Shown: piece after piece, positions 1,595 to 42,987 of the stretch | Layout of the letters: each line of letters begins with the position of its first letter | Numbering within the stretch: position 1 is the stretch's first letter | Sequence record: PX530564.1 | Reading direction: 5' to 3' (one strand) | Origin: a phage | DNA length: 58,765 bases | Program-made: the position numbers and the translations under genes | Notes under the pieces: model-generated | Databases searched by the model: none | Told to the model about the DNA's origin: nothing | The model's input: the letters and a program-made list of their open reading frames with translations, nothing else

Positions 1595-2302
1595 ATGGCT
1601 AAGAAGATTTTCACCTCTGCGCTGGGTATTGCTGAACCTTACGCTTACATCTCCAAGCCGGACTACGGCAACGAAGAGCGTGGCTTTGGGAACCCTCGTG
1701 GTGTTTATAAAGTTGACCTGACCATTCCTAACAAAGACCCGCGTTGTCAACGTATGGTCGATGAAATCGTGAAGTGTCACGAAGAGGCTTATGCTGCTGC
1801 CGTTGAGGAATATGAGGCCAACCCGCCAGCCGTAGCTCGTGGTAAGAAACCACTGAAACCGTATGAGGGCGACATGCCGTTCTTCGATAACGGTGACGGT
1901 ACGACTACCTTTAAGTTCAAATGCTACGCGTCCTTCCAAGACAAGAAGACCAAAGAGACCAAACACATCAATCTGGTAGTGGTGGACTCCAAGGGCAAGA
2001 AGATGGAAGACGTTCCGATTATCGGTGGTGGCTCTAAGCTGAAAGTCAAGTACTCTCTTGTTCCGTACAAGTGGAACACTGCTGTAGGTGCCAGCGTTAA
2101 GCTGCAACTGGAATCCGTGATGCTGGTCGAACTGGCTACCTTTGGTGGCGGTGAAGACGATTGGGCTGACGAAGTTGAAGAGAACGGCTATGTTGCCTCT
2201 GGTTCTGCCAAAGCGAGCAAACCACGCGACGAAGAAAGCTGGGACGAAGACGACGATAATGAGTCCGAAGAAGAAGAAGCAGACGAAGACGGAGACTTCT
2301 AA
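1595..2302 (+). CDS. 2.5: gene 2.5 ssDNA-binding protein (235 aa, acidic C-terminal tail)
   Basis: ORF track; acidic tail ..DEDDDNESEEEEADEDGDF typical of T7 gp2.5. Confidence 0.9.
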   Translation: MAKKIFTSALGIAEPYAYISKPDYGNEERGFGNPRGVYKVDLTIPNKDPRCQRMVDEIVKCHEEAYAAAVEEYEANPPAVARGKKPLKPYEGDMPFFDNGDGTTTFKFKCYASFQDKKTKETKHINLVVVDSKGKKMEDVPIIGGGSKLKVKYSLVPYKWNTAVGASVKLQLESVMLVELATFGGGEDDWADEVEENGYVASGSAKASKPRDEESWDEDDDNESEEEEADEDGDF

Positions 2303-2758
2303 GTGGCTGGCGCATACGCTGCGCGTGGAATCCGAAAGGTCGGGACATTCCGTTCCGGCCTAGAAGATAAAGTCTCTAAGCAGCTAGAGGGTAAGGGCAT
2401 CAAGTTCGACTATGAACTATGGAAAATCCCTTACGTTGTCCCTGCGAGCAACCATGTGTATACTCCAGACTTCCTGCTGCCGAACGGAATCTTTATTGAA
2501 ACCAAAGGTTTATGGGAGAGTGACGACCGAAAGAAACACTTACTGATTCGCGAACAGTTTCCTGAACTAGACATACGTCTGGTGTTCTCAAGCTCCCGCA
2601 CCAAGCTGTACAAAGGGTCTCCGACCAGTTACGGTGAGTGGTGCGAGAAGCACGGCATACTGTTTGCTGACAAATTAATTCCTGTAGAATGGCTCAAAGA
2701 ACCCAAAAAGGAGGTGCCATTTGACAAGCTAAAGCAATCTAAGGGAGGAAAGAAATAA
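2303..2758 (+). CDS. 3: gene 3 endonuclease I (Holliday junction resolvase)
   Basis: ORF track, GTG start immediately after 2.5 stop; (M)AGAYAARGIRKVGTFRSGLEDKVSKQLEGKGIKF.. as T7 endo I. Confidence 0.9.
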   Translation: MAGAYAARGIRKVGTFRSGLEDKVSKQLEGKGIKFDYELWKIPYVVPASNHVYTPDFLLPNGIFIETKGLWESDDRKKHLLIREQFPELDIRLVFSSSRTKLYKGSPTSYGEWCEKHGILFADKLIPVEWLKEPKKEVPFDKLKQSKGGKK

Positions 2759-6081: not shown

Positions 6082-8196
6082 ATGATCGTTTCTGACATCG
6101 AAGCTAACGCCCTCTTAGAGAGCGTCACTAAGTTCCACTGCGGGGTTATCTACGACTACTCCACCGCTGAGTACGTAAGCTACCGTCCGAGTGACTTCGG
6201 TGCGTATCTGGATGCGCTGGAAGCCGAGGTTGCACGAGGCGGTCTTATTGTGTTCCACAACGGTCACAAGTATGACGTTCCTGCATTGACCAAACTGGCT
6301 AAGTTACAGTTGAACCGAGAGTTCCACATTCCTCGTGAGAACTGTATCGACACCCTTGTGCTATCACGTTTGATTCACTCGAACCTCAAAGACACCGATA
6401 TGGGTCTTCTGCGTTCCGGTAAGTTGCCCGGAAAACGCTTTGGGTCTCACGCTTTGGAGGCGTGGGGTTATCGCTTAGGTGAAATGAAAGGTGAATACAA
6501 AGACGACTTTAAGCGGATGCTTGAAGAGCAGGGTGAAGAATACGTTGACGGAATGGAATGGTGGAACTTCAACGAAGAGATGATGGCCTATAACGTTCAG
6601 GACGTTGTGGTCACTAAGGCTCTCCTTGAGAAGCTACTCTCTGACAAACATTACTTTCCTCCTGAGATTGACTTTACGGACGTAGGATACACTACTTTCT
6701 GGTCAGAATCCCTTGAGGCCGTTGACGTTGAACATCGTGCTGCATGGTTACTAGCCAAACAGGAGCGTAATGGGTTCCCGTTTGACACGAAAGCAATCGA
6801 AGAGTTGTACGTAGAGTTAGCTGCTCGACGCTCTGAGTTGCTGCGTAAATTGACCGAAACGTTCGGTTCGTGGTATCAACCTAAAGGCGGCACTGAAATG
6901 TTCTGCCATCCGAGGACTGGTAAACCACTTCCTAAGTATCCTCGCATTAAGACACCTAAAGTTGGTGGCATCTTTAAGAAGCCCAAGAACAAGGCACAGC
7001 GAGAAGGTCGTGAGCCTTGCGAACTGGATACCCGTGAGTACGTTGCTGGTGCTCCTTATACTCCGGTCGAGCACGTAGTGTTTAACCCTTCGTCTCGTGA
7101 CCACATTCAGAAGAAACTCCAAGAGGCTGGATGGGTCCCGACTAAGTTCACCGATAAGGGTGCTCCTGTGGTGGACGATGAGGTACTCGAAGGAGTACGT
7201 GTAGATGACCCTGAGAAGCAAGCTGCTATCGACCTCATTAAAGAGTACTTGATGATTCAGAAGAGAATCGGACAGTCTGCTGAGGGTGATAAGGCTTGGC
7301 TTCGTTACGTTGCTGAGGACGGTAAAATTCATGGTTCTGTTAATCCCAACGGCGCTGTTACTGGTCGCGCTACTCACGCTTTCCCTAACCTCGCACAGAT
7401 ACCCGGTGTCCGTTCTCCTTATGGTGAGCAGTGCCGCGCTGCTTTTGGCGCTGAACATCACCTAGATGGTGTTACTGGTGAGCCTTGGGTTCAGGCTGGT
7501 ATCGATGCGTCCGGTCTGGAGCTACGCTGCTTGGCACATTTCATGGCTCGCTTTGATTACGGTGAGTACGCTAGAGAGATTCTTCATGGCGACATCCACA
7601 CTAAGAACCAGCTAGCTGCCGAATTACCTACCCGTGATAACGCCAAGACGTTCATCTATGGGTTCCTCTATGGCGCTGGTGATGAGAAGATTGGACAGAT
7701 TGTTGGTGCTGGTAAAGAGCGCGGTAAGGAACTCAAGAAGAAATTCCTTGAGAACACCCCAGCGATTGCTGCACTCCGCGAATCTATCCAACAGACACTT
7801 GTCGAGTCCTCTCAGTGGGTCGCTGGTGAGCAACGAGTCAAATGGAAACGCCGCTGGATTAAAGGTCTGGATGGTCGTAAAGTACACGTTCGTAGTCCGC
7901 ACGCTGCGTTGAATACCCTCCTGCAATCTGCTGGTGCTCTCATCTGCAAACTGTGGATTATCAAGACAGAAGAGATGCTCGTAGAGAAAGGCTTGAAGCA
8001 TGGCTGGGATGGGGACTTTGCGTACATGGCGTGGGTACACGATGAAATCCAAGTAGGTTGCCGTACCGAAGAGATTGCTCAGGTGGTAATTGAGACCGCA
8101 CAAGAAGCAATGCGCTGGGTTGGAGACCACTGGAACTTCCGGTGTCTTCTGGATACCGAAGGTAAGATGGGTCCTAACTGGGCCGTATGTCACTAA
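6082..8196 (+). CDS. 5: gene 5 DNA polymerase (704 aa, family A with 3'-5' exonuclease and thioredoxin-binding region)
   Basis: ORF track; [26 protein letters not shown].. and polymerase motifs ..[13 protein letters not shown].., ..WVHDEIQ.. Confidence 0.97.
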   Translation: MIVSDIEANALLESVTKFHCGVIYDYSTAEYVSYRPSDFGAYLDALEAEVARGGLIVFHNGHKYDVPALTKLAKLQLNREFHIPRENCIDTLVLSRLIHSNLKDTDMGLLRSGKLPGKRFGSHALEAWGYRLGEMKGEYKDDFKRMLEEQGEEYVDGMEWWNFNEEMMAYNVQDVVVTKALLEKLLSDKHYFPPEIDFTDVGYTTFWSESLEAVDVEHRAAWLLAKQERNGFPFDTKAIEELYVELAARRSELLRKLTETFGSWYQPKGGTEMFCHPRTGKPLPKYPRIKTPKVGGIFKKPKNKAQREGREPCELDTREYVAGAPYTPVEHVVFNPSSRDHIQKKLQEAGWVPTKFTDKGAPVVDDEVLEGVRVDDPEKQAAIDLIKEYLMIQKRIGQSAEGDKAWLRYVAEDGKIHGSVNPNGAVTGRATHAFPNLAQIPGVRSPYGEQCRAAFGAEHHLDGVTGEPWVQAGIDASGLELRCLAHFMARFDYGEYAREILHGDIHTKNQLAAELPTRDNAKTFIYGFLYGAGDEKIGQIVGAGKERGKELKKKFLENTPAIAALRESIQQTLVESSQWVAGEQRVKWKRRWIKGLDGRKVHVRSPHAALNTLLQSAGALICKLWIIKTEEMLVEKGLKHGWDGDFAYMAWVHDEIQVGCRTEEIAQVVIETAQEAMRWVGDHWNFRCLLDTEGKMGPNWAVCH

Positions 8197-8213
8197 TTCT
8201 ATAGGAGGACCTT

Positions 8214-8441
8214 ATGGCACGGCGCTATAGGATTCGCGAAGTTCGAATGGCTACAGGCGAGACTTTATACTACCCACAGTTCCGTCATGCGTGGCTACCA
8301 TTCTGGTTCCACTTTAAGGGCTACACAGTAGAACGCAGGGTGTCATTCACTTATTATGCCGAAGCATTGGGGTTCATCAATGAATGTAAACTAAATGATG
8401 AACCTGAGGAACGGAATGTTATCAGAAACCACTATCTTTAA
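8214..8441 (+). CDS. hypothetical protein (75 aa), block-A-specific insertion between gene 5 and gene 5.5
   Basis: ORF track; AGGAGG RBS 8 nt upstream of ATG; no equivalent in block D where gene 5 abuts 5.5 directly; no recognisable motif. Confidence 0.5.
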   Translation: MARRYRIREVRMATGETLYYPQFRHAWLPFWFHFKGYTVERRVSFTYYAEALGFINECKLNDEPEERNVIRNHYL

Positions 8442-10021: not shown

Positions 10022-10111
10022 ATGGGCCTTTGTGGTCTCGGAGTGTTCCTCATTGCGTGGGGACTTTGGGACTTAGCCAGAACAATCAAGGCGTTACACG
10101 ACACTAAGTGA
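10022..10111 (+). CDS. 6.3: gene 6.3 small hydrophobic protein (29 aa)
   Basis: ATG 10022, MGLCGLGVFLIAWGLWDLARTIKALHDTK, TGA 10109-10111. Confidence 0.5.
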   Translation: MGLCGLGVFLIAWGLWDLARTIKALHDTK

Positions 10112-10131
10112 TAAACTCAAGGTCCCTAAAT

Positions 10132-10154
10132 TAATACGACTCACTATAGGGAGA
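10132..10154 (+). promoter_or_regulatory. T7 RNAP class III promoter phi6.5-like
   Basis: TAATACGACTCACTATAGGGAGA exact consensus, embedded in a CTCAAGGTCCC..GGGGCCTTTATGAT hairpin (R6.5-like). Confidence 0.9.
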
Positions 10155-10208
10155 TAGGGGCCTTTATGATTATTACTTTAAGATTTAACTCTAAGAGGAA
10201 TCTTTATC

Positions 10209-10463
10209 ATGTTGACACCTATTAACAATTTACTTAAGAACCCTAACGATATTCCAGATGTACCTCGTGCAACCGCTGAGTATCTACAGGTTCGATTCAA
10301 CTATGCGTACCTCGAAGCGTCTGGTCATATAGGACTTATGCGTGCTAATGGCTGTAGTGAGGCCCACATCTTGGGTTTCATTCAGGGTCTACAGTATGCC
10401 TCTAACGTCATTGACGAGATTGATGTACGTAAGGAACAACTAAGAGATGATGGGGAGGATTGA
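10209..10463 (+). CDS. 6.5: gene 6.5 protein (84 aa)
   Basis: ORF track. Confidence 0.8.
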
Positions 10464-10467
10464 CCTT

Positions 10468-10734
10468 ATGTGTTTCTCACCGAAAGTTAAAGTTCCGAAG
10501 ATGGATACCAATCAGATTCGAGCCGTTGAACCAGCGCCTCTGACCCAAGAAGTGTCAAGCGTGGAGTTCGGTGGGTCTTCTGATGAGACGGATACCGAAG
10601 GCACAGAAGTGTCTGGACGCAAAGACCTCAAGGTCGAACGCGATGATTCAGTAGAGAAATATAAAGCTACGAATACTGGTTCCGCTCGTATGAAATCTTC
10701 AATCCGTAAGTCTGCATTCGGAGGCAAGAAGTGA
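10468..10734 (+). CDS. 6.7: gene 6.7 protein (88 aa; virion and ejected protein in T7)
   Basis: ATG 10468 inside ORF 10447..10734; MCFSPKVKVPKMDTNQIRAVEPAPL.. Confidence 0.8.
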   Translation: MCFSPKVKVPKMDTNQIRAVEPAPLTQEVSSVEFGGSSDETDTEGTEVSGRKDLKVERDDSVEKYKATNTGSARMKSSIRKSAFGGKK

Positions 10735-18448: not shown

Positions 18449-18476
18449 TTAAAATGTTCTCCCTGTGGTGTGGAAT

Positions 18477-18499: not shown

Positions 18500-18526
18500 A
18501 CAATACGACTACGGGAGGGTTTTCTT

Positions 18527-18943: not shown

Positions 18944-18947
18944 CCAT

Positions 18948-19538: not shown

Positions 19539-19544
19539 TGAACT

Positions 19545-21788: not shown

Positions 21789-21814
21789 CTAAAGGCTACA
21801 TAAGGAGGCCCTAA

Positions 21815-24800: not shown

Positions 24801-25771
24801 TTCTTGATGCTGCCCGTCAAGGTATGCTTGGGGATGTGATTAGTGCCACCCTATCTGGTAAGACTACTCGCTGGGAGAAGGAAGGATTCCTCCGTGGTGC
24901 ATCGGTAACGCCTGAACAGATGAAAGGAATCAAGGCGCTCATCAAGGAACACATGGTTCGCGGTGAGGATGGTAAGTACACTGTCAAGGATAAGCAAGCG
25001 TTCTCTATGGACCCTAGGGCTATGGACCTGTGGCGACTGGCTGATAAGGTTGCAGATGAGGCTATGCTACGTCCACATAAGGTGTCCTTACAGGATTCCC
25101 ATGCTTTTGGTGCGCTTGGTAAGATGGTAATGCAGTTCAAATCGTTTACCATCAAGTCGCTGAACTCTAAGTTCATCAAGCTCTTCTATGATGGCTACAA
25201 GAATAGCCGTGCGGTTGATGCTGCCTTGACAGGTATCATCTCCATGGGGCTTGCTGGTGGCTACTATGCGATGGCTGCACACGTCAAAGCATATGGAATG
25301 CCTAAGGAGAAACGTAAGGAGTACTTAGAGCGAGCACTGGACCCAACCATGATTGCTCACGCTTCCTTGTCTCGTAGTTCTCAATTGGGTGCACCTTTAG
25401 CTATGGCTGACCTTATTGGTGGTGCGTTCGGTGTAGAATCTTCTAAGATGGCTCGTTCCACGATTCTACCTAAGGATACCATGAAGAAACGAGACCCTAA
25501 CAAGCCTTACACCTCGTGGGAGGTAATGGGTGCTATGGGTTCAAACCTTCTGGAGCAGATGCCTTCGGCTGGCTTTGTGGCTAACGTTGGTGCTACCCTA
25601 CTGAACACTGCTGGTGTGGTTAATGCTCCCAACAAGGCTACCGAGCAGGACTTCATGACTGGCTTGATGAACTCTACAAAAGAGTTAGTTCCTAACGACC
25701 CTTTGACTCAACAGCTTGTGTTGAAGATTTATGAGGCCAATGGTGTCAATTTGAAGGAGCGTCGGAAATAA
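21815..25771 (+). CDS. 16: gene 16 internal core protein D with N-terminal lytic transglycosylase domain (1318 aa)
   Basis: ORF track; N-terminal ..ESRFQPTAKSKTGPLGMMQFT.. SLT-like motif. Confidence 0.92.
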   Translation: MDKYDKNVPSDYDGLFQKAADANGVSYDLLRKVAWTESRFQPTAKSKTGPLGMMQFTKATAKAMGLRVTDGPDDDRLNPELAINAAAKHLAGLVGKFDGDELKAALAYNQGEGRLGNPQLEAYSKGDFSAISEEGRNYLRNLLDVAKSPMAGQLEAFGGITPKGKGIPAEVGLAGIGHKQKVTQDLPESTSFDVKGIEQEAPAKPFAKDFWETHGETLDEHNNRSTFFGFKDAAEAELSNSVAGMAFRAGRLDNGFDVFKDTITPTRWNSHIWTPEELEKIRTEVKNPAYINVVTGGSPENLDDLIKLANENFEADSRAAEAGLGAKLSAGVIGAGVDPLSYVPMVGVTGKGFKLINKALVVGAESAALNVASEGLRTSVAGGDSDYAGAALGGFVFGAGMSAISDAIAAGLKRGKPEAEFDNEFIGPMMRMEARETARNANSTDLSRMNTENMKFEGEHNGVPYEDLPAEKGAVVLHDGSVISASNPINPKTLKEFSEVDPEKAAWGVKLAGFTEIGLKTLGSDDANIRRIAIDLVRSPTGMQSGASGKFGATASDIHERLHSTDQRTYNDLYKAMSDAMKDPEFSTGGSKMSREEARYTIYRRAALAIERPELQKVLTPSERIVMDIIKRHFDTKRELMENPAIFGNTKAVSIFPESRHKGTYVPHVYDRHAKALMIQRYGAEGLQEGIARSWLNSYASRPEVKARVDEMLKEVHGVKEVTPEMVEKYAMDKAYGISHSDQFTNSSVIEENIEGLVGIENNSFLEARNLFDSDLSITMPDGQQFAVNDLRDFDMFRIMPAYDRRINGDIAIMGSTGKTTQELKDEILALKASAEGNGKKTGEVHALMDTVKILTGRARRNHDTVWETSLRSINDLGFFAKNAYMGAQNLTEIAGMIATGNVRALGHGIPILRDTLYKSKPVSAKELKELHASLFGKEVDQLIRPKRADIVQRLREATDTGPMVANIVGTLKYSTQELAARSPWTKMLNGTTNYLLDAARQGMLGDVISATLSGKTTRWEKEGFLRGASVTPEQMKGIKALIKEHMVRGEDGKYTVKDKQAFSMDPRAMDLWRLADKVADEAMLRPHKVSLQDSHAFGALGKMVMQFKSFTIKSLNSKFIKLFYDGYKNSRAVDAALTGIISMGLAGGYYAMAAHVKAYGMPKEKRKEYLERALDPTMIAHASLSRSSQLGAPLAMADLIGGAFGVESSKMARSTILPKDTMKKRDPNKPYTSWEVMGAMGSNLLEQMPSAGFVANVGATLLNTAGVVNAPNKATEQDFMTGLMNSTKELVPNDPLTQQLVLKIYEANGVNLKERRK

Positions 25772-25791
25772 TACGACTCACTATAGGGAGA
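25769..25791 (+). promoter_or_regulatory. T7 RNAP class III promoter phi17-like
   Basis: TAATACGACTCACTATAGGGAGA overlapping gene 16 stop. Confidence 0.9.
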
Positions 25792-25841
25792 GGAGAAGGT
25801 CTTCTCCCTGTAGTATTCTAGATTTACTTTAAGGAGGTCAA

Positions 25842-27518
25842 ATGGCTAACGTAATTAAGACCGTTTTGACTTACCCGCTGGATGGCTCTACGCGTGATTT
25901 TAATATTCCGTTTGAGTATCTAGCCCGTAAGTTCGTAGTGGTAACTCTTATTGGCGTAGACCGTAAGGTCCTTACGATTAATACAGACTATCGCTTTGCT
26001 ACACGCACTACCATCTCTCTGACCAAGGCTTGGGGTACAGCCGATGGTTATACGACCATTGAGTTGCGTCGAGTAACCTCCACTACAGACCGCTTGGTTG
26101 ACTTTACGGATGGCTCAATCCTCCGTGCTTATGACCTTAACGTGGCCCAGATTCAGACGATGCATGTAGCGGAAGAGGCCCGTGACCTAACTGCGGATAC
26201 CATTGGTGTCAATAATGATGGTCACTTGGACGCCCGTGGTCGCCGTATCGTGAACCTAGCGAACGCCGTGGATGACCGTGACGCTGTTCCGTTTGGTCAA
26301 CTTAAGACCATGAACCAGAACTCGTGGCAAGCGCGTAATGAAGCCTTACAGTTCCGCAATGAGGCTGAGACTTTCCGTAACCAAGCGGAGGGCTTTAAGA
26401 ACGAGTCCAGCACTAACGCTTCGAATACCAATCAGTGGCGTAATGAGGCTAAGGGGTTCCGAGATGAGGCCGAACAGTTTAAGAACACTGCGACACAACA
26501 GGCTACCGCTGCTAGTGGCTCTGCGACGGCTGCTCACCAATCTGAGGTGAACGCTGCGAACTCTGCAAAAGAATCTGCTAACTCTGCTACTTTGGCAGAA
26601 CAACAAGCAGACCGTGCGGAACGTGAAGCTGACAAGCTGGGTAACTGGAATGCACTTGCAGGTGCCGTTGATAAAGTAGTGGGCGTAGATGTGTACTTTA
26701 AAGGGGTTCTCTTTTGCCGTCAAGGAGTACAGGTATTATCCTCTACCGTTCAAGGGGACCTATATCGCTCCGGTCTTTGGAGAGATACTGCTGGCAACCT
26801 TTTCTACGACTATGTACTTGAGCGTGGAACAGGTACAGGACGTGCGTTTTCAACTTTAGTCTATGAAGCTAGTGGGAATAATTACACCAAGTTTGACAGC
26901 AGAACATACCATGTAAGGGACATCCAGACTGGCTGGAGCGGAGCCAGGTCTTACGCAGACCAGTGGAATGAGAGTGCCCCATTGTGGGGTACGGTTCCAG
27001 ATGGTGCCCGTAACGAGTACTTTCCTCTTATTAAACAGCGTTCCTATCAATCCGGAATAGACGCCAAAGCATGGCATCAAGGTATTCTAGTGCAAGGTGA
27101 CGGTAAGAACGTGTGGAACATCGTGTTTACAGATGAGGGCGGTAACGTTAGAGTGTGGACATTCGACGGAGATGGTAGCTTTTGGTCTCCTATGGATATC
27201 AATGCCTCGCGGCAGGTGATCTCTGGCTCTTTCAGAACACATGGTGGCGGTACGCTCAACGGTGAAGGTCGTGTATACGGCTCTGCATACGATGGTGGCT
27301 ACCTTGACGACTGGGTTCGAAGACATTTCATAGGGGATGTCTACCTAGGACCTCACGTGTGGAACCAGTACGGTGGAGGCTATCACGACATTATAGCGCC
27401 ATCTGGACATGTCCAAACAGGCACAACCGTTAATAATGGGGGTGTTGCTGGTATCTTTGTAAGACCAGTATGGCTTGGTTTCCATAACGGCACAAAAAGA
27501 ATCATTGCGTCACAGTAA
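25842..27518 (+). CDS. 17: gene 17 tail fibre (558 aa): conserved N-terminal module plus a C-terminal receptor-binding module unlike T7 and unlike block E
   Basis: ORF track; N-terminus MANVIKTVLTYPLDGSTRDFNIPFEYLARKF..; diverges from the block-E fibre after ..FKG (about aa 285). Confidence 0.9.
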   Translation: MANVIKTVLTYPLDGSTRDFNIPFEYLARKFVVVTLIGVDRKVLTINTDYRFATRTTISLTKAWGTADGYTTIELRRVTSTTDRLVDFTDGSILRAYDLNVAQIQTMHVAEEARDLTADTIGVNNDGHLDARGRRIVNLANAVDDRDAVPFGQLKTMNQNSWQARNEALQFRNEAETFRNQAEGFKNESSTNASNTNQWRNEAKGFRDEAEQFKNTATQQATAASGSATAAHQSEVNAANSAKESANSATLAEQQADRAEREADKLGNWNALAGAVDKVVGVDVYFKGVLFCRQGVQVLSSTVQGDLYRSGLWRDTAGNLFYDYVLERGTGTGRAFSTLVYEASGNNYTKFDSRTYHVRDIQTGWSGARSYADQWNESAPLWGTVPDGARNEYFPLIKQRSYQSGIDAKAWHQGILVQGDGKNVWNIVFTDEGGNVRVWTFDGDGSFWSPMDINASRQVISGSFRTHGGGTLNGEGRVYGSAYDGGYLDDWVRRHFIGDVYLGPHVWNQYGGGYHDIIAPSGHVQTGTTVNNGGVAGIFVRPVWLGFHNGTKRIIASQ

Positions 27519-27527
27519 GGAGGGACA

Positions 27528-27905
27528 ATGAGAGTATTTACTAACTGGAAGTGGACCGAAGGGTTTTACTTTGGAAAACCAATCTATGAGATTCGTGACC
27601 ACAATAACGTTGATTGGTATACCTTGATGGACGAACTAGATGAGCGCCAAGAAACATGGGTGGTAGGTATTGGACCTAACGGCGACGTTATGTGGTTTAC
27701 TGATGGACCAGTGTCTGGACTGTATGTACCTGTAGAGGGAGGGACTGTTGTTGTAACTGATTCTTTTGAGTTCTCGACTAACTGGAGAGGGTGCACATGG
27801 GATGGAAAGACGTTCCATGCACCAGAAGAAGTCCAGAAGCGAACTAAGGAGGACATTGAGCAGGACTTGCTGAAACTAATGGCTGAGTTGAAGGGTCTGG
27901 AATAA
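27528..27905 (+). CDS. hypothetical protein (125 aa) downstream of tail fibre; candidate tail-fibre assembly chaperone or cargo gene
   Basis: ORF track; AAGGAGGG RBS 7 nt upstream of ATG; Trp- and acidic-rich; absent at the equivalent position in block E. Confidence 0.5.
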   Translation: MRVFTNWKWTEGFYFGKPIYEIRDHNNVDWYTLMDELDERQETWVVGIGPNGDVMWFTDGPVSGLYVPVEGGTVVVTDSFEFSTNWRGCTWDGKTFHAPEEVQKRTKEDIEQDLLKLMAELKGLE

Positions 27906-27925
27906 TTATACCAAGGAAAGACGTG

Positions 27926-27943
27926 TAGTCCACGGATGGACTA
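27926..27943 (+). promoter_or_regulatory. conserved stem-loop upstream of holin gene 17.5
   Basis: Perfect 7-bp inverted repeat TAGTCCA-CGGA-TGGACTA; related hairpins at 55223..55236 and 58075..58088. Confidence 0.35.
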
Positions 27944-27961
27944 TTTGAGGGAGGACGCTAC

Positions 27962-28009
27962 ATGTTGTCTTTAGATTTTAACAACGAGTTAGTCAAGGCT
28001 ACCTAAAGT
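27962..28009 (+). pseudogene. 17.5: 5' fragment of gene 17.5 (holin), 13 codons, truncated at junction with terminal-repeat sequence
   Basis: ATG 27962, MLSLDFNNELVKA matches the start of the intact holin at 55254, then runs into repeat sequence and stops at TAA 28007-28009. Confidence 0.6.
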
Positions 28010-28167
28010 TCCCCCATAGGGGTACCTAAAGCCCAGCCAATCACCTAAAGTCAACCTTCGGTTGACCTTGAGGGTTCCCTAGGGTTGGGATGACCCTTTG
28101 GTTTACCTTTGAGTGTCTCCTTGTCCCTATCTGTTCAGTCTCCTAAAGTCACCTCCTAAAGTCCATC
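28001..28167 (+). repeat. terminal-repeat-homologous sequence, entered about 15 bp inside the repeat
   Basis: CCTAAAGTTCCCCCATAGGGGTACCTAAAGCCCAGCC.. matches the T7-type terminal repeat; the same repeat type begins TCTCACAGTGTACGG at 58687. Confidence 0.65.
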
Positions 28168-28300
28168 ATCAAGCCAACGCCTAAAGAATACCCTTAAAGA
28201 CCCATCAAGTCAATCCCTATCTTAAAGATATTCTAAAGACCATACCTAAAGACCATACCTAAAGATGCCTTGTTGTTACCTATAAAGAGATTATCTTTAA
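28168..28300 (+). repeat. left-end array of short CCTAAAG / CTTAAAG direct repeats
   Basis: More than 8 copies of the heptamer at irregular spacing, as in T7 left-end short repeats. Confidence 0.5.
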
Positions 28301-28310
28301 CCATTGTCTT

Positions 28311-28333
28311 TAATACAACTCACTATAAGGAGA
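28311..28333 (+). promoter_or_regulatory. T7 RNAP promoter phiOL-like
   Basis: TAATACAACTCACTATAAGGAGA near the genome left end. Confidence 0.7.
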
Positions 28334-28383
28334 CTACTTAAAGGCCTTAAAGAGATTAATCAAAATAATTTAAAAAAGAGTAT

Positions 28384-28412
28384 TGACTTAAGGAGTCCTA
28401 GGGGTTACTATT
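28384..28412 (+). promoter_or_regulatory. sigma70-type early promoter A1-like
   Basis: AAAAAGAGTATTGACTTAAGG.. with -35 TTGACT and -10-like TACTAT at 17-bp spacing. Confidence 0.6.
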
Positions 28413-28509
28413 CATCTCGTCAACGGGACAACGGCCTAAAAGCCACTCCCTGAGATACCGGGGTCAACCGGATAAGTAGACAGCCTGTAAGTCGCACGAA
28501 AAACAGGCA

Positions 28510-28538
28510 TTGACAACACGCAGTAACATGCAGTAAGA
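28510..28538 (+). promoter_or_regulatory. sigma70-type early promoter A2-like
   Basis: TTGACAACACGCAGTAACATGCAGTAAGATAC. Confidence 0.6.
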
Positions 28539-28616
28539 TACACAGCGTCAACACGGTAGCACGGTGTCTTCTAGGTGACTTAAGCGCACCACGGCACATA
28601 AGGTGAAACAAAACGG

Positions 28617-28645
28617 TTGACAACATGCAGTAAACACGGTACGAT
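28617..28645 (+). promoter_or_regulatory. sigma70-type early promoter A3-like
   Basis: TTGACAACATGCAGTAAACACGGTACGATGTACC. Confidence 0.6.
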
Positions 28646-28763
28646 GTACCACAAGCAGTAAGGGTGTAGGGATAGGAACCGAGAAACCTGCCCGCGACCC
28701 GCCACGGATAAGGCACTAGCTATGAGTCGAATTCGGTCACTCATCGCATAAAAGAATAACAGG

Positions 28764-28792
28764 TTGACAGCCTCCTTTAAAAGCTGTAAGAT
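28764..28792 (+). promoter_or_regulatory. additional sigma70-like promoter inside a 137-bp block shared with 40531..40667
   Basis: TTGACAGCCTCCTTTAAAAGCTGTAAGATGTACC (-35 TTGACA, -10 TAAGAT). Confidence 0.45.
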
Positions 28793-29070
28793 GTACCACA
28801 GAAAGACACCGAGTGTCGTAGGTGTAAAAACGCGACATAGTGGATAGATGCCGAAAGCACAAGCGACCACGATAATAAAGAGCTTGTCGGAAATGTAACG
28901 CAAGTGACGGCTAACACTGAAACAGCCTCGGCTCGACGAAACTGTAGCTTAAAGTTCTTTAACAATTTGGTAAATAGCTCTTGGGTGCACGAATAGCGGA
29001 TAACTCAAGGGTATCGCAAGGTGCCCTTTATGATATCCACTAACATTCACATACAATGAGGTAACACAAG

Positions 29071-29576: not shown

Positions 29577-29625
29577 TAAACTCAAGGTCGCTCCTAGCGA
29601 GTGGCCTTTCATGATTATCACTTTA
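29577..29625 (+). promoter_or_regulatory. RNase III processing hairpin (R0.5-like)
   Basis: AACTCAAGGTCGCTCCTAGCGAGTGGCCTTTCATGATTATCAC. Confidence 0.4.
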
Positions 29626-29643
29626 CTTACGGGAGTAATGTAT

Positions 29644-29769
29644 ATGCTTACTATCGGTCTACTCACCGCTCTGGGTCTAGCTGTAGGCGCATCCTTTGGG
29701 AAGTCTTTGGGCGTAGCTGTAGGCTCTTACTTGGTCGCTTGTATCATCACGGGAGCACTGCGCAAATGA
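29644..29769 (+). CDS. 0.5: gene 0.5 small membrane protein (41 aa)
   Basis: ATG 29644, MLTIGLLTALGLAVGASFGKSLGVAVGSYLVACIITGALRK. Confidence 0.6.
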   Translation: MLTIGLLTALGLAVGASFGKSLGVAVGSYLVACIITGALRK

Positions 29770-29906
29770 TGAAACATTACGTTATGCCTATCCACACCAA
29801 GAACGGTGCTACAGTTTGCACACCTGATGGCTTCGCAATGAAACAACGCATTGAGCGCCTTAAGCGCGAACTGCGCATCAACCGCAAGCGTCTTCAACTA
29901 GGCTGA
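29766..29906 (+). CDS. 0.6: gene 0.6-like protein (46 aa)
   Basis: ATG 29766 overlapping 0.5 stop; MMKHYVMPIHTKNGATVCTPDGFAMKQRIERLKRELRINRKRLQLG. Confidence 0.55.
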   Translation: MMKHYVMPIHTKNGATVCTPDGFAMKQRIERLKRELRINRKRLQLG

Positions 29907-29931
29907 AATTCTTGTAACTAAAGGCAACTGT

Positions 29932-30386
29932 ATGCTTAATTGCTCCAAAACGTGTATAGCATGTGGTGAGATGAAACCACTGAATATGTACTCGAAAAAT
30001 GCAGCATCGCGAGATGGTCACATCGGTACGTGTAAGAAATGCAAGGCAAAGCAACAAAGGGAACGAAGAGCCAAGGCAAAGGCTTCTGGTGCGCCAACTG
30101 AGAAGGCAATCAAGGATGCCAAGCGTAGACGAAACAATCACCTGAAAATTAGTTACGGTATCGACGAATCAGTGTACAAAAAGATGTACGAAGAACAACA
30201 CGGCGTCTGCGCCATATGTAAACAACCTGAAAGCATTGAGGGTAGGCGACTATGTGTTGACCATTCGCACATGACAGGAGACGTAAGGGTCTTCTGTGCT
30301 CAAACTGCAACAGAGGAATAGGCCTTCTTAAAGACTCACCTGAACTATTACGCAACGCTTTCTATTATTTAACTGGTAAACTCTAA
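29932..30386 (+). pseudogene. Endonuclease VII-type (His-Cys box) homing-endonuclease-like gene with apparent 1-nt frameshift
   Basis: ORF 29932..30321 carries CAICKQP..LCVDHSHMTGDVR; the motif continues in the +1 frame (GLLCSNCNRGIGLLKDSPELLRNAFYYL) to TAA 30384-30386; break is in the G-run at 30287-30289. Confidence 0.7.
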
Positions 30387-30399
30387 AGGACACACTGTA

Positions 30400-31479
30400 A
30401 TGAACATTACCGACATCATGAACGCTATCGACGCAATCAAAGCACTGCCAATCTGTGAACTTGATAAGCGTCAAAGTATGCTCATTGATTTGCTGGTCGA
30501 GATGGTCAACAACGAAACGTGTGACGGTGAAATCACCAAGCTGGACAAGCCGCTTGAATATCAGGACTGGTGGACTACCTTAAGGTGCCTGACTACTGAC
30601 GCTGGCTTCACGATGCTCGGTAATGGTCACTTCTCCGCTGCATATAGTCACCCACTGCTGCCTAACAGAGTGATTAAGGTGGGCTTTAAGAAAGAGGATT
30701 CAGGCGCTGCGTATATCGCATTCTGCCGCATGTATCAGGGTCGCGCTGGTATCCCTAACGTCTACGATGTTCAACGCCATGCAGGCTGCTATACGGTGGT
30801 TCTTGATGCCCTGAATGAATGTGAGCGAGACGATAACTATGAGCACGACAAATACGCTGAGATTGCAAGCGACATCATTGACTGCAACTCTGATATGCAC
30901 GATTGGCGTGGCGGATGGGTTGGGGAGTTCGTCGAAACTTGCAAACTAATCCGCAAGTTCTTTGAGGGCATCGCTTCGTTCGACATGCACAGCGGGAACA
31001 TCATGTTCGACGATAATGACGTACCGTACATTACCGACCCTGTGTCATTCTCACAGAAGAAAGATGGTGGCGTGTTCAGCATGGACCCTGAGGAACTCAT
31101 CAAGGAAGTCGAGGAAGTCGCACGACAGAAAGAAATTGACCGCGCCAAGGAACGTAAAGAACGCCATGAGGGACGATTACAAGCGCGTAGAGTCAAACGC
31201 ATTAATCGCAAGGCACGTAAGGCACACCGCGCTAAGCGTGAAAGGATGCTTGCTGCGTGGCGCATGGCTGAGCGTCACGAACGGCGTAACCATGAGGTAG
31301 CTGTAGATGTGCTAGGAAGAACCAATAACGCTATGCTCTGGGCGCACATGTTCGCTGGGGACTTTAAGGCGCTTGAGGAACGAATCGCAGCGCACTGGTT
31401 CCAAGCTGACCGCATGGCTATAGCTAATGGTCTTCCACTAAACATTGATAAGAAACTTGACGCAATGCTAATGGGATGA
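30400..31479 (+). CDS. 0.7: gene 0.7 protein kinase / host transcription shut-off protein (359 aa)
   Basis: ORF track; [25 protein letters not shown].. full length as T7 gp0.7. Confidence 0.9.
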
Positions 31480-31549
31480 TAGTCTTATCTTACAGGTCAT
31501 CTGCGGGTGGCCTGAAATAGATACGATTACTGACCGAAAGAGGTACAAA

Positions 31550-34201
31550 ATGAGCACGATTAACATCGCTAAGAACGATTTCTCTGACATCGAACTGGCT
31601 GCTATCCCGTTCAACACTCTGGCTGACCACTATGGTGAGCGTCTAGCTCGCGAACAGTTGGCCCTTGAGCATGAGTCTTACGAGATGGGCGAGGCACGTT
31701 TCCGCAAGATGTTTGAGCGTCAACTCAAGGCCGGTGAGGTTGCAGACAATGCGGCTGCTAAGCCACTGATTACTACTCTACTGCCCAAGATGGTTACACG
31801 CATCAACGACTGGTTTGAGGAAGTGAAAGCTAAGCGTGGCAAACGTCCAACCGCTTTCCAGTTCCTGCAAGGAATCAAGCCGGAAGCCGTAGCGTATATC
31901 ACCATTAAGACTACTCTTGCTTGCCTAACGAGCGTAGACAATACAACCGTTCAGGCTGTAGCAAGCGCCATCGGACGGGCTATCGAGGAAGAGGCTCGCT
32001 TCGGTCGAATCCGTGACCTAGAAGCTAAGCACTTCAAGAAAAACGTTGAGGAACAACTAAACAAGCGCGTAGGGCACGTCTATAAGAAAGCATTCATGCA
32101 AGTAGTAGAGGCCGATATGCTCTCTAAGGGTCTACTCGGTGGCGAGGCGTGGTCTACATGGCACAAGGAAGATTCCATTCACGTAGGTGTGCGCTGCATT
32201 GAGATGCTCATTGAGTCCACCGGAATGGTTAGCTTGCACCGCCAAAATGCTGGCGTAGTGGGCCAAGACTCTGAGACTATCGAGCTGGCACACGAATACG
32301 CTGAGGCTATCGCAACACGGGCTGGGGCACTGGCGGGTATCTCTCCGATGTATCAGCCTTGCATAGTACCGCCTAAACCTTGGACCGGTGTAACTGGTGG
32401 TGGATACTGGGCCAACGGTCGCCGTCCACTGGTACTGGTGCGTACCCACAGCAAGAAGGCACTGATGCGCTACGAAGATGTTTACATGCCTGAGGTATAC
32501 AAGGCGATCAACATTGCGCAAAACACCGCTTGGAAAATCAACAAGAAAGTCCTAGCGGTCGCCAACGTAATCACCAAGTGGAAGCACTGCCCGGTCGAGG
32601 ACATCCCAGCGATTGAACGTGAAGAACTCCCGATGAAACCGGAAGACATCGACACGAATCCTGAGGCTCTCACTGCATGGAAACGTGCCGCTGCCGCTGT
32701 GTACCGTAAAGACAAGGCTCGCAAGTCTCGCCGCATAAGCCTTGAGTTCATGCTTGAGCAAGCCAATAAGTTCGCTAACCATAAGGCCATCTGGTTCCCT
32801 TACAACATGGACTGGCGCGGTCGTGTTTACGCTGTGTCAATGTTCAACCCGCAAGGTAACGACATGACCAAGGGACTGCTGACACTGGCTAAGGGTAAAC
32901 CAATCGGTAAAGAAGGTTACTACTGGCTGAAAATCCACGGTGCAAACTGTGCGGGTGTCGATAAGGTTCCGTTCCCTGAGCGCATCAAGTTCATTGAGGA
33001 CAACCACGAGAACATCATGGCTTGCGCTAAGTCTCCTCTGGAGAACACTTGGTGGGCTGAGCAAGATTCTCCGTTCTGCTTCCTTGCGTTCTGCTTTGAG
33101 TACGCTGGGGTACAACACCACGGCCTTAGCTACAACTGCTCTCTTCCGCTGGCGTTCGATGGGTCTTGCTCTGGTATTCAGCACTTCTCCGCGATGCTCC
33201 TTGATGAGATAGGTGGTCGTGCGGTTAACCTGCTGCCTAGTGAAACCGTTCAGGACATCTACGGGATTGTCGCTAAGAAAGTCAACGTGATTCTGCAAGA
33301 AGACGTAATCAACGGGACCGACAACGAAGTAGTTACCGTGACTGATGAGAACACTGGCGAAATCTCTGAGAAAGTTAAGCTGGGCACCAAGGCATTGGCT
33401 GGTCAGTGGTTGGCTTACGGTGTTACTCGCAGCGTGACTAAGCGTTCAGTCATGACGCTGGCTTACGGGTCCAAAGAGTTCGGCTTCCGTCAACAAGTGC
33501 TGGAAGATACCATTCAGCCAGCTATTGATTCCGGTAAAGGTCTGATGTTCACTCAACCGAATCAGGCCGCTGGATACATGGCGAAACTGATTTGGGAAGC
33601 TGTGAGCGTCACGGTGGTAGCTGCGGTTGAAGCAATGAACTGGCTTAAGTCTGCCGCTAAGCTGCTGGCTGCTGAGGTCAAAGATAAGAAGACTGGAGAG
33701 ATTCTTCGCAAGCGTTGCGCTGTGCATTGGGTAACTCCTGATGGGTTCCCAGTGTGGCAGGAATACAAGAAGCCAATTCAGACTCGCTTGAACCTGATGT
33801 TCCTCGGTCAGTTCCGCTTACAGCCGACCATTAACACCAACAAAGACAGCGAGATTGATGCACACAAACAGGAGTCCGGTATTGCTCCTAACTTTGTACA
33901 CAGCCAAGATGGTAGCCACCTGCGTAAGACTGTAGTGTGGGCGCATGAGAAGTACGGAATCGAATCATTTGCGTTGATTCACGACTCCTTCGGGACCATT
34001 CCGGCTGACGCTGCCAACCTGTTCAAAGCTGTTCGCGAAACTATGGTTGACACCTATGAGTCTTGCGATGTACTGGCTGACTTCTATGAGCAGTTCGCTG
34101 ACCAGTTACATGAGTCTCAATTGGATAAAATGCCAGCACTTCCGGCTAAAGGTAACTTGAATCTCCAAGACATCCTTAAGTCAGACTTCGCGTTCGCGTA
34201 A
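31550..34201 (+). CDS. 1: gene 1 single-subunit DNA-dependent RNA polymerase (883 aa)
   Basis: ORF track; near-identical to T7 RNAP (MSTINIAKNDFSDIELAAIPFNTLADHYGERLAREQ.. ..DFAFA). Confidence 0.98.
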   Translation: MSTINIAKNDFSDIELAAIPFNTLADHYGERLAREQLALEHESYEMGEARFRKMFERQLKAGEVADNAAAKPLITTLLPKMVTRINDWFEEVKAKRGKRPTAFQFLQGIKPEAVAYITIKTTLACLTSVDNTTVQAVASAIGRAIEEEARFGRIRDLEAKHFKKNVEEQLNKRVGHVYKKAFMQVVEADMLSKGLLGGEAWSTWHKEDSIHVGVRCIEMLIESTGMVSLHRQNAGVVGQDSETIELAHEYAEAIATRAGALAGISPMYQPCIVPPKPWTGVTGGGYWANGRRPLVLVRTHSKKALMRYEDVYMPEVYKAINIAQNTAWKINKKVLAVANVITKWKHCPVEDIPAIEREELPMKPEDIDTNPEALTAWKRAAAAVYRKDKARKSRRISLEFMLEQANKFANHKAIWFPYNMDWRGRVYAVSMFNPQGNDMTKGLLTLAKGKPIGKEGYYWLKIHGANCAGVDKVPFPERIKFIEDNHENIMACAKSPLENTWWAEQDSPFCFLAFCFEYAGVQHHGLSYNCSLPLAFDGSCSGIQHFSAMLLDEIGGRAVNLLPSETVQDIYGIVAKKVNVILQEDVINGTDNEVVTVTDENTGEISEKVKLGTKALAGQWLAYGVTRSVTKRSVMTLAYGSKEFGFRQQVLEDTIQPAIDSGKGLMFTQPNQAAGYMAKLIWEAVSVTVVAAVEAMNWLKSAAKLLAAEVKDKKTGEILRKRCAVHWVTPDGFPVWQEYKKPIQTRLNLMFLGQFRLQPTINTNKDSEIDAHKQESGIAPNFVHSQDGSHLRKTVVWAHEKYGIESFALIHDSFGTIPADAANLFKAVRETMVDTYESCDVLADFYEQFADQLHESQLDKMPALPAKGNLNLQDILKSDFAFA

Positions 34202-34852: not shown

Positions 34853-35878
34853 ATGATGAACATTAAGACCAACCCATTCAAAGCCGTGTCTTTCATAGAG
34901 TCTGCCATTAAGAAAGCTCTGGATAACGCTGGGTATCTTATTGCTGACATTAAGTACGATGGTGTGCGTGGTAACATCTGCGTAGACAATACCGCTAACT
35001 GCTGCTGGCTCTCTCGTGTATCCAAACCGATTCCGGCACTGTCTTACCTTAATGGGTTCGACGCACGTTGGCAGCGTCTACTAAAGGATGACCGTTGCTT
35101 CTACCCTGATGGCTTCATGCTGGATTGCGAACTTATGGTCAAGGGAGTGGACTTCAACACTGGCTCCGGCCTTCTGCGGACCAAGTGGCTCAACAAGAAG
35201 AACATGCAGTTCGATATTGGAGGTCCGTATGAATCGTGGGACGTGAGCCTGAAGGGACTTCCTTTCGGTATTGACCCGAACTTACTAACAGTTAAACTCT
35301 ACGCTATCCTTCCGTACCACATTGTGGAATCTGGGGAAGACTGTGATGTCATGACGTTGCTCATGCAGGAACACGTTAAGAACATGCTGCCTCTGCTACA
35401 GGAATACTTTCCTGAAATCGAATGGCAAGCGGCTGAGTCTTACGAGGTTTACGACATGGTAGAACTACAGCAACTGTACGAGAAGAAGCGTGAAGAAGGG
35501 CATGAGGGTCTCATTGTGAAAGACCCGATGTGCATCTACAAGCGCGGTAAGAAGTCCGGCTGGTGGAAACTTAAGCCTCTTGAGGAAGCTGACGGTATCA
35601 TTCAAGGTGTAAACTGGGGAACCGAAGGGCTTGCTAACGAAGGTAAGGTAATTGGATTCAAGGTGCTTCTTGAGACTGGTCGTCTTGTGGATGCCAATAA
35701 CATCTCTCGCGCCTTAATGGATGAATTTACAGCTAACGTTAAAGAACATGGCGAGGACTATTATAATGGCTGGGCTTGCCAGATTGGATTTATGGAGGAA
35801 ACACCAGATGGCTCATTGCGTCACCCGTCCTTCACCTGCTTCCGAGGAACTGAGGACAATCCGAAAGAGAAAGTATAA
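34853..35878 (+). CDS. 1.3: gene 1.3 ATP-dependent DNA ligase (341 aa)
   Basis: ORF track; adenylation-site motif ..IADIKYDGVRG.. and C-terminus ..ETPDGSLRHPSFTCFRGTEDNPKEKV. Confidence 0.92.
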   Translation: MMNIKTNPFKAVSFIESAIKKALDNAGYLIADIKYDGVRGNICVDNTANCCWLSRVSKPIPALSYLNGFDARWQRLLKDDRCFYPDGFMLDCELMVKGVDFNTGSGLLRTKWLNKKNMQFDIGGPYESWDVSLKGLPFGIDPNLLTVKLYAILPYHIVESGEDCDVMTLLMQEHVKNMLPLLQEYFPEIEWQAAESYEVYDMVELQQLYEKKREEGHEGLIVKDPMCIYKRGKKSGWWKLKPLEEADGIIQGVNWGTEGLANEGKVIGFKVLLETGRLVDANNISRALMDEFTANVKEHGEDYYNGWACQIGFMEETPDGSLRHPSFTCFRGTEDNPKEKV

Positions 35879-36278
35879 GTATAACCCTGCGGCTCCTTCG
35901 GGAGTCATTTCTGCCTCTGGTAAACCCATAGGGTACAAGCGGAAAGATGGGTATTGGGTTCTTTCTTATGGAGGAAAGCAGTTACTTGCACACAGGGTGG
36001 TCTGGATGCTTAACTTCGGTGCAATACCCGATGGAATGGTGATAGACCACATTAACAGAAACCCTAGCGACAACCGCATAGAGAATCTTCGAGTAGTAAC
36101 TCAATCAGCTAACCTAAGGAATGTAGGCGTCCGGTCTCACTGTAGGAGTGGAGAGAAGTTTATCTCCCTTGATGTGAGAACCGGACGTTTTTCCGTTCGT
36201 ATCAGGAGAAAATCCTATGGAACATATGGTACTCTCGAAGAGGCTATAGCTGTGCGCGATGCTAATACGACTCACTAA
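35808..36278 (+). CDS. HNH homing-endonuclease-like protein (about 156 aa) between ligase and gene 1.5
   Basis: ATG 35808 with GGAGGA RBS, inside ORF 35721..36278; motif ..GMVIDHINRNPSDNRIENLRVVTQSAN..; overlaps ligase 3' end by 71 nt; stop is the TAA of the phi1.5 promoter. Confidence 0.7.
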   Translation: MAHCVTRPSPASEELRTIRKRKYKYNPAAPSGVISASGKPIGYKRKDGYWVLSYGGKQLLAHRVVWMLNFGAIPDGMVIDHINRNPSDNRIENLRVVTQSANLRNVGVRSHCRSGEKFISLDVRTGRFSVRIRRKSYGTYGTLEEAIAVRDANTTH

Positions 36279-38097: not shown

Positions 38098-38553
38098 GTG
38101 GCTGGCGCATACGCTGCGCGTGGTATCAGAAAGGTCGGGACATTCCGTTCCGGCCTAGAAGATAAGGTCTCTAAGCAGCTAGAGGGTAAGGGTATTAAGT
38201 TCGATTATGAACTGTGGAAAATCCCTTACGTTGTCCCTGCGAGCAACCATGTGTATACTCCAGACTTCCTGCTGCCTAACGGAATCTTTATTGAAACCAA
38301 AGGTTTATGGGAGAGTGACGACCGAAAGAAACACTTATTGATTCGCGAACAGTTTCCTGAACTGGACATCCGTCTGGTGTTCTCAAGCTCACGCACCAAG
38401 CTATACAAAGGGTCTCCGACCAGTTACGGCGAATGGTGTGAGAAGCACGGTATTCTGTTTGCTGACAAATTAATTCCTGTAGAATGGCTCAAAGAACCCA
38501 AAAAGGAGGTGCCATTTGACAAGCTGAAACAATCGAAGGGAGGAAAGAAATAA
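38098..38553 (+). CDS. 3: gene 3 endonuclease I, block B copy
   Basis: ORF track, GTG start. Confidence 0.9.
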   Translation: MAGAYAARGIRKVGTFRSGLEDKVSKQLEGKGIKFDYELWKIPYVVPASNHVYTPDFLLPNGIFIETKGLWESDDRKKHLLIREQFPELDIRLVFSSSRTKLYKGSPTSYGEWCEKHGILFADKLIPVEWLKEPKKEVPFDKLKQSKGGKK

Positions 38554-39064: not shown

Positions 39065-40537
<1,473 letters not shown>

Positions 40538-40631
40538 GGATAGGAACCGAGAAACCTGCCCGCGACCCGCCAAGGATAAGGCACTAGCTATGAGTCGAAT
40601 TCGGTCACTCATCGCATAAAAGAATAACAGG

Positions 40632-40660
40632 TTGACAGCCTCCTTTAAAAGCTGTAAGAT
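40632..40660 (+). promoter_or_regulatory. sigma70-like promoter inside the shared 137-bp block (block C copy)
   Basis: TTGACAGCCTCCTTTAAAAGCTGTAAGATGTACC; block 40531..40667 near-identical to 28663..28799. Confidence 0.45.
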
Positions 40661-40847
40661 GTACCACGAAATGACGGAACAGTGAGTCACCACACTGAAA
40701 GGTGATGCGGCCTAACGAAACCTGACCAAAGACGCTCTTTAACAATCTGGTAAACGGCTCTTGAGTGTACACACGTAGCGGATAACTCAAGGGTATCGCA
40801 AGGTGCCCTTTATGATATCCACTAACAACACTATGAGGTAACACACA

Positions 40848-41198
40848 ATGGCTATGTCTAACATGACTTATAACAACGTTTTCGATCACGCTTACGAAAT
40901 GCTGAAAGAAAACATCCGTTATGATGACATCCGTGACACTGATGACCTGCACGATGTAGTACACATGGCAGCCGATAGCGCCGTTCCGCACTATTACAGC
41001 GACATTTTCAGCGTAATGGCAAGCGAGGGCATTGACCTTGAGTTCGAAGACTCTGGTCTGATGCCGGACACCAAGGACGTAATCCGTATCCTGCAAGCGC
41101 GTATCTATGAGCAACTCACGATTGACCTCTGGGAAGACGCTGAGGACTTACTGAACGAGTACCTTGAGGAAGTCGAAGCAGAAGAGGACGAAGAGTAA
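40848..41198 (+). CDS. ocr: gene 0.3 Ocr anti-restriction protein (116 aa), second copy
   Basis: ORF track; one aa difference from the copy at 29071. Confidence 0.93.
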
Positions 41199-41353: not shown

Positions 41354-41421
41354 TAGGCTCAAGGTCGCTCGATATGAGTGGCCTTTATGATTATCACTTT
41401 ACTTGAATGGGAGTAATGCAC

Positions 41422-41928: not shown

Positions 41929-42987
<1,059 letters not shown>

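Follow-up and report, generated by a model that had tools for sequence, protein, structure and literature searches.

The Endo VII motif, whose consensus is distinct from the one for the His-Cys box (Fang et al. 2018, PMC6083498), is known from phage enzymes with different domain orders. In T4 endonuclease VII (gp49; PDB 1EN7, 1E7D, 2QNC), a structure-specific Holliday-junction resolvase, the motif is N-terminal and is followed by a dimerization domain. In F-CphI of cyanophage S-PM2 and other 'DHHRN' enzymes, which are encoded by free-standing phage genes, the motif is C-terminal and stands behind a DNA-binding N-terminal part (PMC6083498). The latter order is that of the 'endonuclease clade', which contains intron-encoded and proven homing enzymes, and the podoviruses represented in this clade also encode T7 endonuclease I (PMC6083498). 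Single substitutions within the motif are damaging: T4 endonuclease VII C61S does not bind DNA, the N62D mutant binds DNA but is inactive, and F-CphI N118D does not bind DNA (PMC6083498).

A gene located between 0.6A and the 0.7 kinase gene of Escherichia phage vB_EcoM_CQ615 (hereafter CQ615) is probably a homing-endonuclease gene, free-standing and with the Endo VII motif, of the F-CphI/'DHHRN' type, that has been inactivated by a frameshift. We analysed it within a window of 58,765 nt, the whole stretch of DNA under study. Comparison of the window with itself and with GenBank revealed a stitched composite of three T7-like (Teseptimavirus) phages:

1 to 28000: block A, exactly 28,000 nt, 91-93% identity to Escherichia phage vB_EcoM_CQ615
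28001 to 40530: block B, 100% identity to PQ010280.1 (CQ615) 1-12530, with its end falling within gene 4
40531 to 58765: block C, a third phage with internal jumps, beginning in the early region

The endonuclease gene is within block B, where window positions 29932-30386 correspond to CQ615 1932-2386. The composite junctions (28000/28001, 40530/40531, ~42757-42771 and 48721) look artificial rather than biological, because they occur without homology. In block C, the 0.7 kinase ORF (41929-42987) continues, at ~42757-42771, into a 3' fragment of gene 4, and at 48721 there is a leap from CQ615-equivalent position 18393 to 29026. Because the window is a composite, block C represents a different phage, and not a second copy of the early region in one genome as the initial annotation had it; the accompanying observation that block C has a 0.6A/0.6B arrangement and no endonuclease gene is correct. 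Positions 1-127 of CQ615 are repeated exactly at 39583-39709 of its record, forming a T7-type direct terminal repeat of which the window holds only the left copy (28001-28127). A literature search for CQ615 returned nothing relevant, and a paper on a Hafnia phage deals with other endonuclease genes.

The gene is split into two reading frames at a short run of G residues:

29932 to 30321, + strand: truncated frame-0 ORF, 129 amino acids, ending ...CAICKQPESIEGRRLCVDHSHMTGDVR then VFCAQTATEE*
30287 to 30289, + strand: G3 run (GGG then T), where one base is deleted; G4+T or G5+C in intact alleles
30288 to 30386, + strand: continuation in the -1 frame, 32 codons and a stop, encoding G120-L151

GenBank record PQ010280 annotates only the truncated ORF (1932..2321), as 'endonuclease VII'. 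The N-terminus of the frame-0 ORF is a zinc-finger-like region (CxxxCxxC...CxxC) that is followed by a basic linker. The ORF then encodes the first half of the Endo VII motif (C93, C96, D110, H111, H113 and R119), 10 out-of-frame codons and a stop. The shift lies exactly between the codons for R119 and G120. C93-x2-C96 is in frame, whereas the second zinc pair, C123-x2-C126, and the metal-binding N127 are encoded only in the -1 frame downstream of the shift; both are found in the DNA of the gene and in intact alleles, but not in the encoded product. Insertion of one G yields a joined protein of 151 amino acids. The initial annotation had already attributed the split to one missing G at 30287-30289, and the closest relatives, which read GGGGT or GGGGG at this site and have an uninterrupted 151-aa ORF, bear this out. 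The frame had been misnamed, however: with one base deleted, the rest of the protein has to be read in the -1 frame (offset +2), and it is, not in the +1 frame.

The joined protein matches essentially the whole Pfam profile PF02945, Endonuclease_7 (positions 3-81 of 82), with 86.6 bits and an E-value of 1.1e-24, against a curated gathering threshold of 23.6 bits. This match, much stronger than chance would give, is the result of the family search that had been proposed along with the frame correction. The frame-0 product alone scores 44.6 bits over profile positions 3-55 of 82. Matches in PHROGs are to 'endonuclease VII' families, the top match being PHROG 2633 (E 8.5e-39). At E<=0.01, the only Pfam models matched were Endonuclease_7 and, below threshold, Stc1; neither a His-Cys box model nor zf-His_Me_endon was among them. 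The label 'His-Cys box' (I-PpoI type), previously given to the motif, is rejected, since only Endonuclease_7 is above threshold; the motif is the Endo VII/DHHRN beta-beta-alpha-metal motif.

The gene shares its Pfam family and its catalytic and zinc-binding residues with T4 endonuclease VII. C23 and C26 of T4 correspond to C93 and C96 here; D40, H41 and H43 to D110, H111 and H113; R54 to R119; C58 and C61 to C123 and C126; and N62 to N127. Of these, D110, H111, H113 and R119 are read in frame 0. Unlike in the T4 enzyme, the motif is C-terminal in the joined protein (residues 70-148 of 151), and the alignment is limited to residues 12-70 of T4 endonuclease VII (E 1e-4). The phage has, in addition, a resolvase of its own:

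38098 to 38553, + strand: gene 3 endonuclease I, a T7-type Holliday-junction resolvase (CQ615 10098..10553, annotated as 'endonuclease I')

Since the phage already encodes gene 3 endonuclease I, it needs no further resolvase. We therefore rejected assignment to the T4-type 'resolvase clade', given the C-terminal motif, the restricted alignment and the presence of endonuclease I. The C-terminal motif and the cysteine-rich, basic N-terminus instead match the 'endonuclease clade', and the host phage encodes T7 endonuclease I like the podoviruses of that clade, so we read the gene as an F-CphI-type homing endonuclease. All elements of the 'DHHRN' arrangement (CX2C ... DHxH ... R ... CX2C-N) are present in the joined protein, and the gene is likewise free-standing. 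It differs from F-CphI in that there is no intron nearby, in its early-region locus between 0.6A and 0.7, in being known here from sequence, and in that a frameshift separates the R from the second CX2C in CQ615.

If this assignment is correct, the N-terminal zinc-finger/basic region of the intact 151-aa protein would serve to bind DNA, which would be cut by the C-terminal beta-beta-alpha-metal site, in which C93, C96, C123 and C126 would hold zinc and to which D110, H111, H113, R119 and N127 would also belong. As its target we predict the allele, near the 0.6/0.7 junction, of a co-infecting relative that lacks the endonuclease, and recombinational repair after the cut would copy the cassette in. 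That the gene is mobile by homing is suggested by its family and, indirectly, by its sporadic distribution, by two comparisons in which the cassette is closer than the flanking DNA and by the shared locus in three genera. No sigma-70-like promoter was found within the cassette on either strand, and the gene is probably expressed along with the early operon. In CQ615, this early region is transcribed by host RNA polymerase, and the loss of one G ends translation after 129 amino acids. The 129-aa product is predicted to be dead because equivalent mutants of T4 endonuclease VII (C61S, N62D) and F-CphI (N118) are inactive or non-binding.

The endonuclease occupies a discrete segment of the locus:

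29766 to 29906, + strand: gene 0.6A, 46 amino acids, of which the last six codons and the stop are cassette-derived
29889 to 30383, + strand: endonuclease cassette, 495 bp of DNA specific to endonuclease-bearing phages
30400 to 31479, + strand: gene 0.7 serine/threonine kinase, the conserved right neighbour in three genera
41667 to 41911, + strand: alternative allele in block C, a 0.6A tail and 0.6B frame of 245 bp without endonuclease, also present in T7

The limits of the cassette were taken from self-comparison of the window and from alignment with block C, T7, Yep_9, WX1 and Logan contigs. On the left, the cassette is bordered by the 0.6A core that all alleles share, ...CGCATCAACCGCAAG, which extends to 29888, and on the right by the likewise shared TAAAGGACACACTG, which starts at 30384 upstream of 0.7 and carries the stop codon of the endonuclease gene and the ribosome-binding site of 0.7. 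A TAAAGAACA|TAAAGGA duplication is retained at the right junction in WX1. In neighbouring contigs, the gene at the 0.6A position belongs to Pfam family Phage_T7_0_6. Genomes with and without the endonuclease do not differ in either immediate flank. A third allele occurs in Yersinia phage vB_Yep_9 (PV596790, ~780-1070), where only a short spacer is present and both the 0.6B segment and the endonuclease are missing; as its flanks resemble those of endonuclease-bearing phages, this allele may be the empty site or have arisen by deletion.

The difference at 0.6/0.7 is thus, in these alignments, a replacement polymorphism rather than a clean insertion. The initial annotation had described a presence/absence polymorphism of a mobile endonuclease and had suggested that comparison with block C would define an insertion site. 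The presence/absence pattern is upheld, because the gene occurs in a minority of T7-like early regions and is absent from block C, T7 and most relatives. The simple insertion is not: in the comparison of flanks, the 495-bp cassette takes the place of the 245-bp 0.6A-tail/0.6B segment.

The cassette is covered by only 4 of the 243 phage records that match the surrounding 1.6 kb. The gene nevertheless lies directly upstream of 0.7 in Teseptimavirus, Teetrevirus and Przondovirus. Orthologues in this position with 63-88% amino acid identity are found in the Teetrevirus members Klebsiella phage 31 and Shigella phage ESh12, and also in the Przondovirus KpV92 and similar Klebsiella phages (phi1_146049). 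HZP2 is an exception, as its endonuclease gene is between 0.4 and gene 1. Identity of the cassette relative to its surroundings varies. The endonuclease has 82-83% amino acid identity to the Teetrevirus copies, against 50% for the adjacent kinase, and in the other cross-genus comparison the values are 67% and 54%. The cassette is 98.8% identical to those of DRR831878 and SRR7457750, with flanks at 90-94%; its identity to that of WX1 is 88.7%, below the flanks (92-95%). Intact alleles have a dN/dS of ~0.1, indicating purifying selection. Between copies of the T7 group and the T3 group, dS has reached saturation. This saturation and the conserved position are compatible with long vertical persistence as much as with repeated homing. 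Product names are shifted in OP168920/OP219460, such that the record of WX1 (vB_YenP_WX1) gives the name 'DNA-directed RNA polymerase' to the 0.7 kinase and 'endonuclease VII' to a 0.6-like ORF, and in the WX2 record the endonuclease is named 'protein kinase'.

Intact alleles nearly identical to the CQ615 gene already exist in public databases, where the gene and its family are annotated. The exact frame-corrected 151-aa protein (P0001) is present in a collection of 15 billion proteins and in six Logan contigs, whereas the exact truncated 129-aa protein was not found in that collection. Contigs with intact alleles were recovered through an exact match to the 0.7 kinase protein of the window. 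Three independent assemblies, SRR14663583 (L015), SRR27143248 (L016) and SRR14663215 (L017), have an intact 151-aa gene upstream of an identical kinase, and their sole difference from window positions 29932-30386 is one extra G at 30287. The L016 contig (SRR27143248_286205) is identical to the window from 29580 to ~32600 except for this G. In the longer comparison, over 29580-33979, the two sequences are ~10% divergent beyond ~32600, inside gene 1 (RNA polymerase), a sharp change that marks a mosaic recombination breakpoint within an essential gene. Because the change from G4 to G3 is without any accompanying decay, the lesion is either a very recent mutation or an error in a single record.

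The same G run varies in other phages. We surveyed its states among GenBank phages and Logan/ENA contigs:

WX1 and WX2: G5+C at the run, intact
DRR831878 and SRR7457750: G4+T at the run, intact
PDP351P2 (OZ035763), 1667-2170: G5+A+C, a +1 change, plus a 5' deletion
ERR3648472, 1301-1654: G7+C, a +2 change, plus a second frameshift in which an A5 run is reduced to A4
Protein P0011: tail ...VRGASMLKLQQRNRPT, a +1 change inferred from the protein tail
Protein P0023: tail ...VRGVFCAQTATEE, a +2 change inferred from the protein tail
Klebsiella phage KpV92, 401-805: a +1 change in a second G run 30 nt downstream (AAT AGG GGG CAT)

The run lengths of P0011 and P0023 are deduced from protein tails and are probably of the G6 type. 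The deletion in PDP351P2 joins 0.6A (...RELRIN) to the endonuclease remnant (HLK...). A search with the allele pattern GGAGACGTAA-N2-9-CTTCTGTGCTCAAACTGCAAC gave 0 matches in IMG/VR and 0 in JGI metagenome contigs. With CQ615 counted, independent sequences show seven states of the run (G3+T, G4+T, G5+C, G5+A+C, G7+C, and the inferred +1 and +2), and independent frameshifts at this run are present in at least four other sequences (PDP351P2, ERR3648472, P0011 and P0023). Most alleles, comprising about two dozen distinct proteins, are intact and have the invariant core LCVDHSHxTGDVRGLLCSNCNRGIGLLKDSPEL. Because broken alleles are independent and in part further damaged, genuine frameshifting at this run is common. 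The only mildly new point of this analysis is that one short G run in the catalytic core has been struck repeatedly.

There is an appreciable chance, though well short of an even one, that the gene is intact in the real phage and that the G is missing only from the deposited CQ615 genome, through a mistake in sequencing or assembly. The G3 allele has a single source, as block B is PQ010280 1-12530 at 100% identity; the otherwise identical alleles in three other samples are all G4; the gene has gained no further mutation; the collection of 15 billion proteins does not contain the exact 129-aa product; and the site is a homopolymer. Nonetheless, a run of three versus four bases is short for a homopolymer miscall in a consensus sequence, and L016 differs from the window by no other indel in 3 kb, such that the CQ615 record is not generally indel-ridden. 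Moreover, the length of the same run has changed in different ways in at least four further independent assemblies, and some of these are damaged elsewhere too, by the 5' deletion (PDP351P2) or the second frameshift (ERR3648472). These three reasons incline us to a genuine mutation, in a selfish gene that is dispensable and at a G run prone to frameshifts, which we regard as rather the more probable of the two. Should the changes at the run be genuine, the G tract at the Arg-Gly codons, together with the second tract at Asn-Arg-Gly codons, could in principle be a hypermutable, reversible on/off switch of the endonuclease, an idea that we doubt strongly. If it were true, active and silent copies of a nuclease that is costly would be maintained side by side in phage populations, and the run states would reflect selection-driven switching rather than plain decay or error.

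An intact product might also be made despite the lesion, if ribosomes or RNA polymerase underwent a programmed -1 slip at the G run and so produced some full-length endonuclease, comparable to T7 0.6B and 10B. T7-like phages do use translational frameshifting at 0.6A/0.6B, according to a GenBank note, and at gene 10, and the site has AGG, a codon that E. coli uses rarely. Yet the nearest relatives encode the protein in a single frame, the other broken alleles differ in sign and size (+1, +2) and lack a conserved recoding signal, GUA AGG GUC is not an X XXY YYZ slippery heptamer, and the fold of the downstream RNA is no better than those of shuffled sequences (z -0.45). A G3 run is also too short for known transcriptional slippage. 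In view of the single-frame relatives, the missing heptamer and the z-score, we rejected this hardly credible explanation. It is likewise improbable, if somewhat less so, that the gene is a nuclease beneficial to the phage, for example in degradation of host or competitor DNA or as an accessory of repair or resolution, that is not selfish and has simply been lost by CQ615. The strong purifying selection fits such a role, as do the position upstream of 0.7 that is conserved across three genera with dS saturated and an early expression from host-polymerase promoters by a cassette without its own. But the gene is absent from the great majority of T7-like phages, T7 included, and has repeatedly been inactivated or partly deleted in evidently viable isolates. 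In addition, endonuclease I already serves as the resolvase of the phage, the domain order is that of the clade with intron-encoded and proven homing enzymes (PMC6083498), and two comparisons show higher similarity in the cassette than in the flanks. A decayed homing endonuclease is therefore the explanation that we prefer.

Other endonuclease genes are present in the window. A 185-aa ORF at 35721-36278 (+ strand) with a strong HNH_3 domain (72.9 bits) comes after the ligase gene, with whose 3' end it overlaps. Only the final 91 codons of this ORF (CQ615 8006..8278) are annotated in GenBank, as a 'putative homing endonuclease', and it represents a second selfish-nuclease gene in block B. In block C, an endonuclease gene of 152 codons with HNH_3 and helix-turn-helix domains (42991-43449, + strand) follows gene 4. 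At that place, block A (4987-5072) has only ~86 bp, and CQ615 has no match to this segment of block C; the difference between blocks C and A is another presence/absence polymorphism of an endonuclease.

With regard to annotation, CQ615 1932..2386 should be flagged as a frameshifted (pseudo)gene or re-checked, and the family should be named Endo VII-motif/DHHRN homing endonuclease, not 'recombination endonuclease VII'. The frameshift itself is an ordinary single-base lesion that carries little weight beyond annotation, and for phage-therapy genomes the endonuclease is non-essential. The locus offers a compact natural series for the decay of free-standing homing endonucleases in T7-like phages, with alleles that are intact, just broken, multiply broken, partly deleted, replaced or empty, and its repeatedly altered short G run is a handy marker for decay studies.

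Among solved structures, the top match, ahead of T4 endonuclease VII, is to the restriction endonuclease Hpy99I (PDB 3FC3; E 1e-6), which also has a C-terminal nuclease domain. The match takes in the GLLCxxCNxGxGxxKD segment that is out of frame in CQ615. Hpy99I, a type II enzyme from bacteria, has a methylase as its partner, whereas the CQ615 gene has no adjacent methylase. Small 'endonuclease VII' genes of the gp13.5 type, in T3, phiYeO3-12, EcoDS1 and related Autographiviridae, belong to the same family, are of the same size and are similarly sporadic in T7-like genomes, with ~40-43% identity. However, these distant relatives are at a different locus, between genes 13 and 14, and the endonucleases of the 0.6/0.7 locus form a set of their own with 63-99% identity.

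Homing endonucleases reportedly pass through a cycle of invasion, fixation, degeneration and loss, which Goddard and Burt are said to have described in 1999 for a yeast mitochondrial intron endonuclease. The 0.6/0.7 locus resembles this cycle, as a match of pattern, in that a single site has intact alleles, a freshly frameshifted one in CQ615, multiply damaged (ERR3648472) and partly deleted (PDP351P2) ones, and empty ones.
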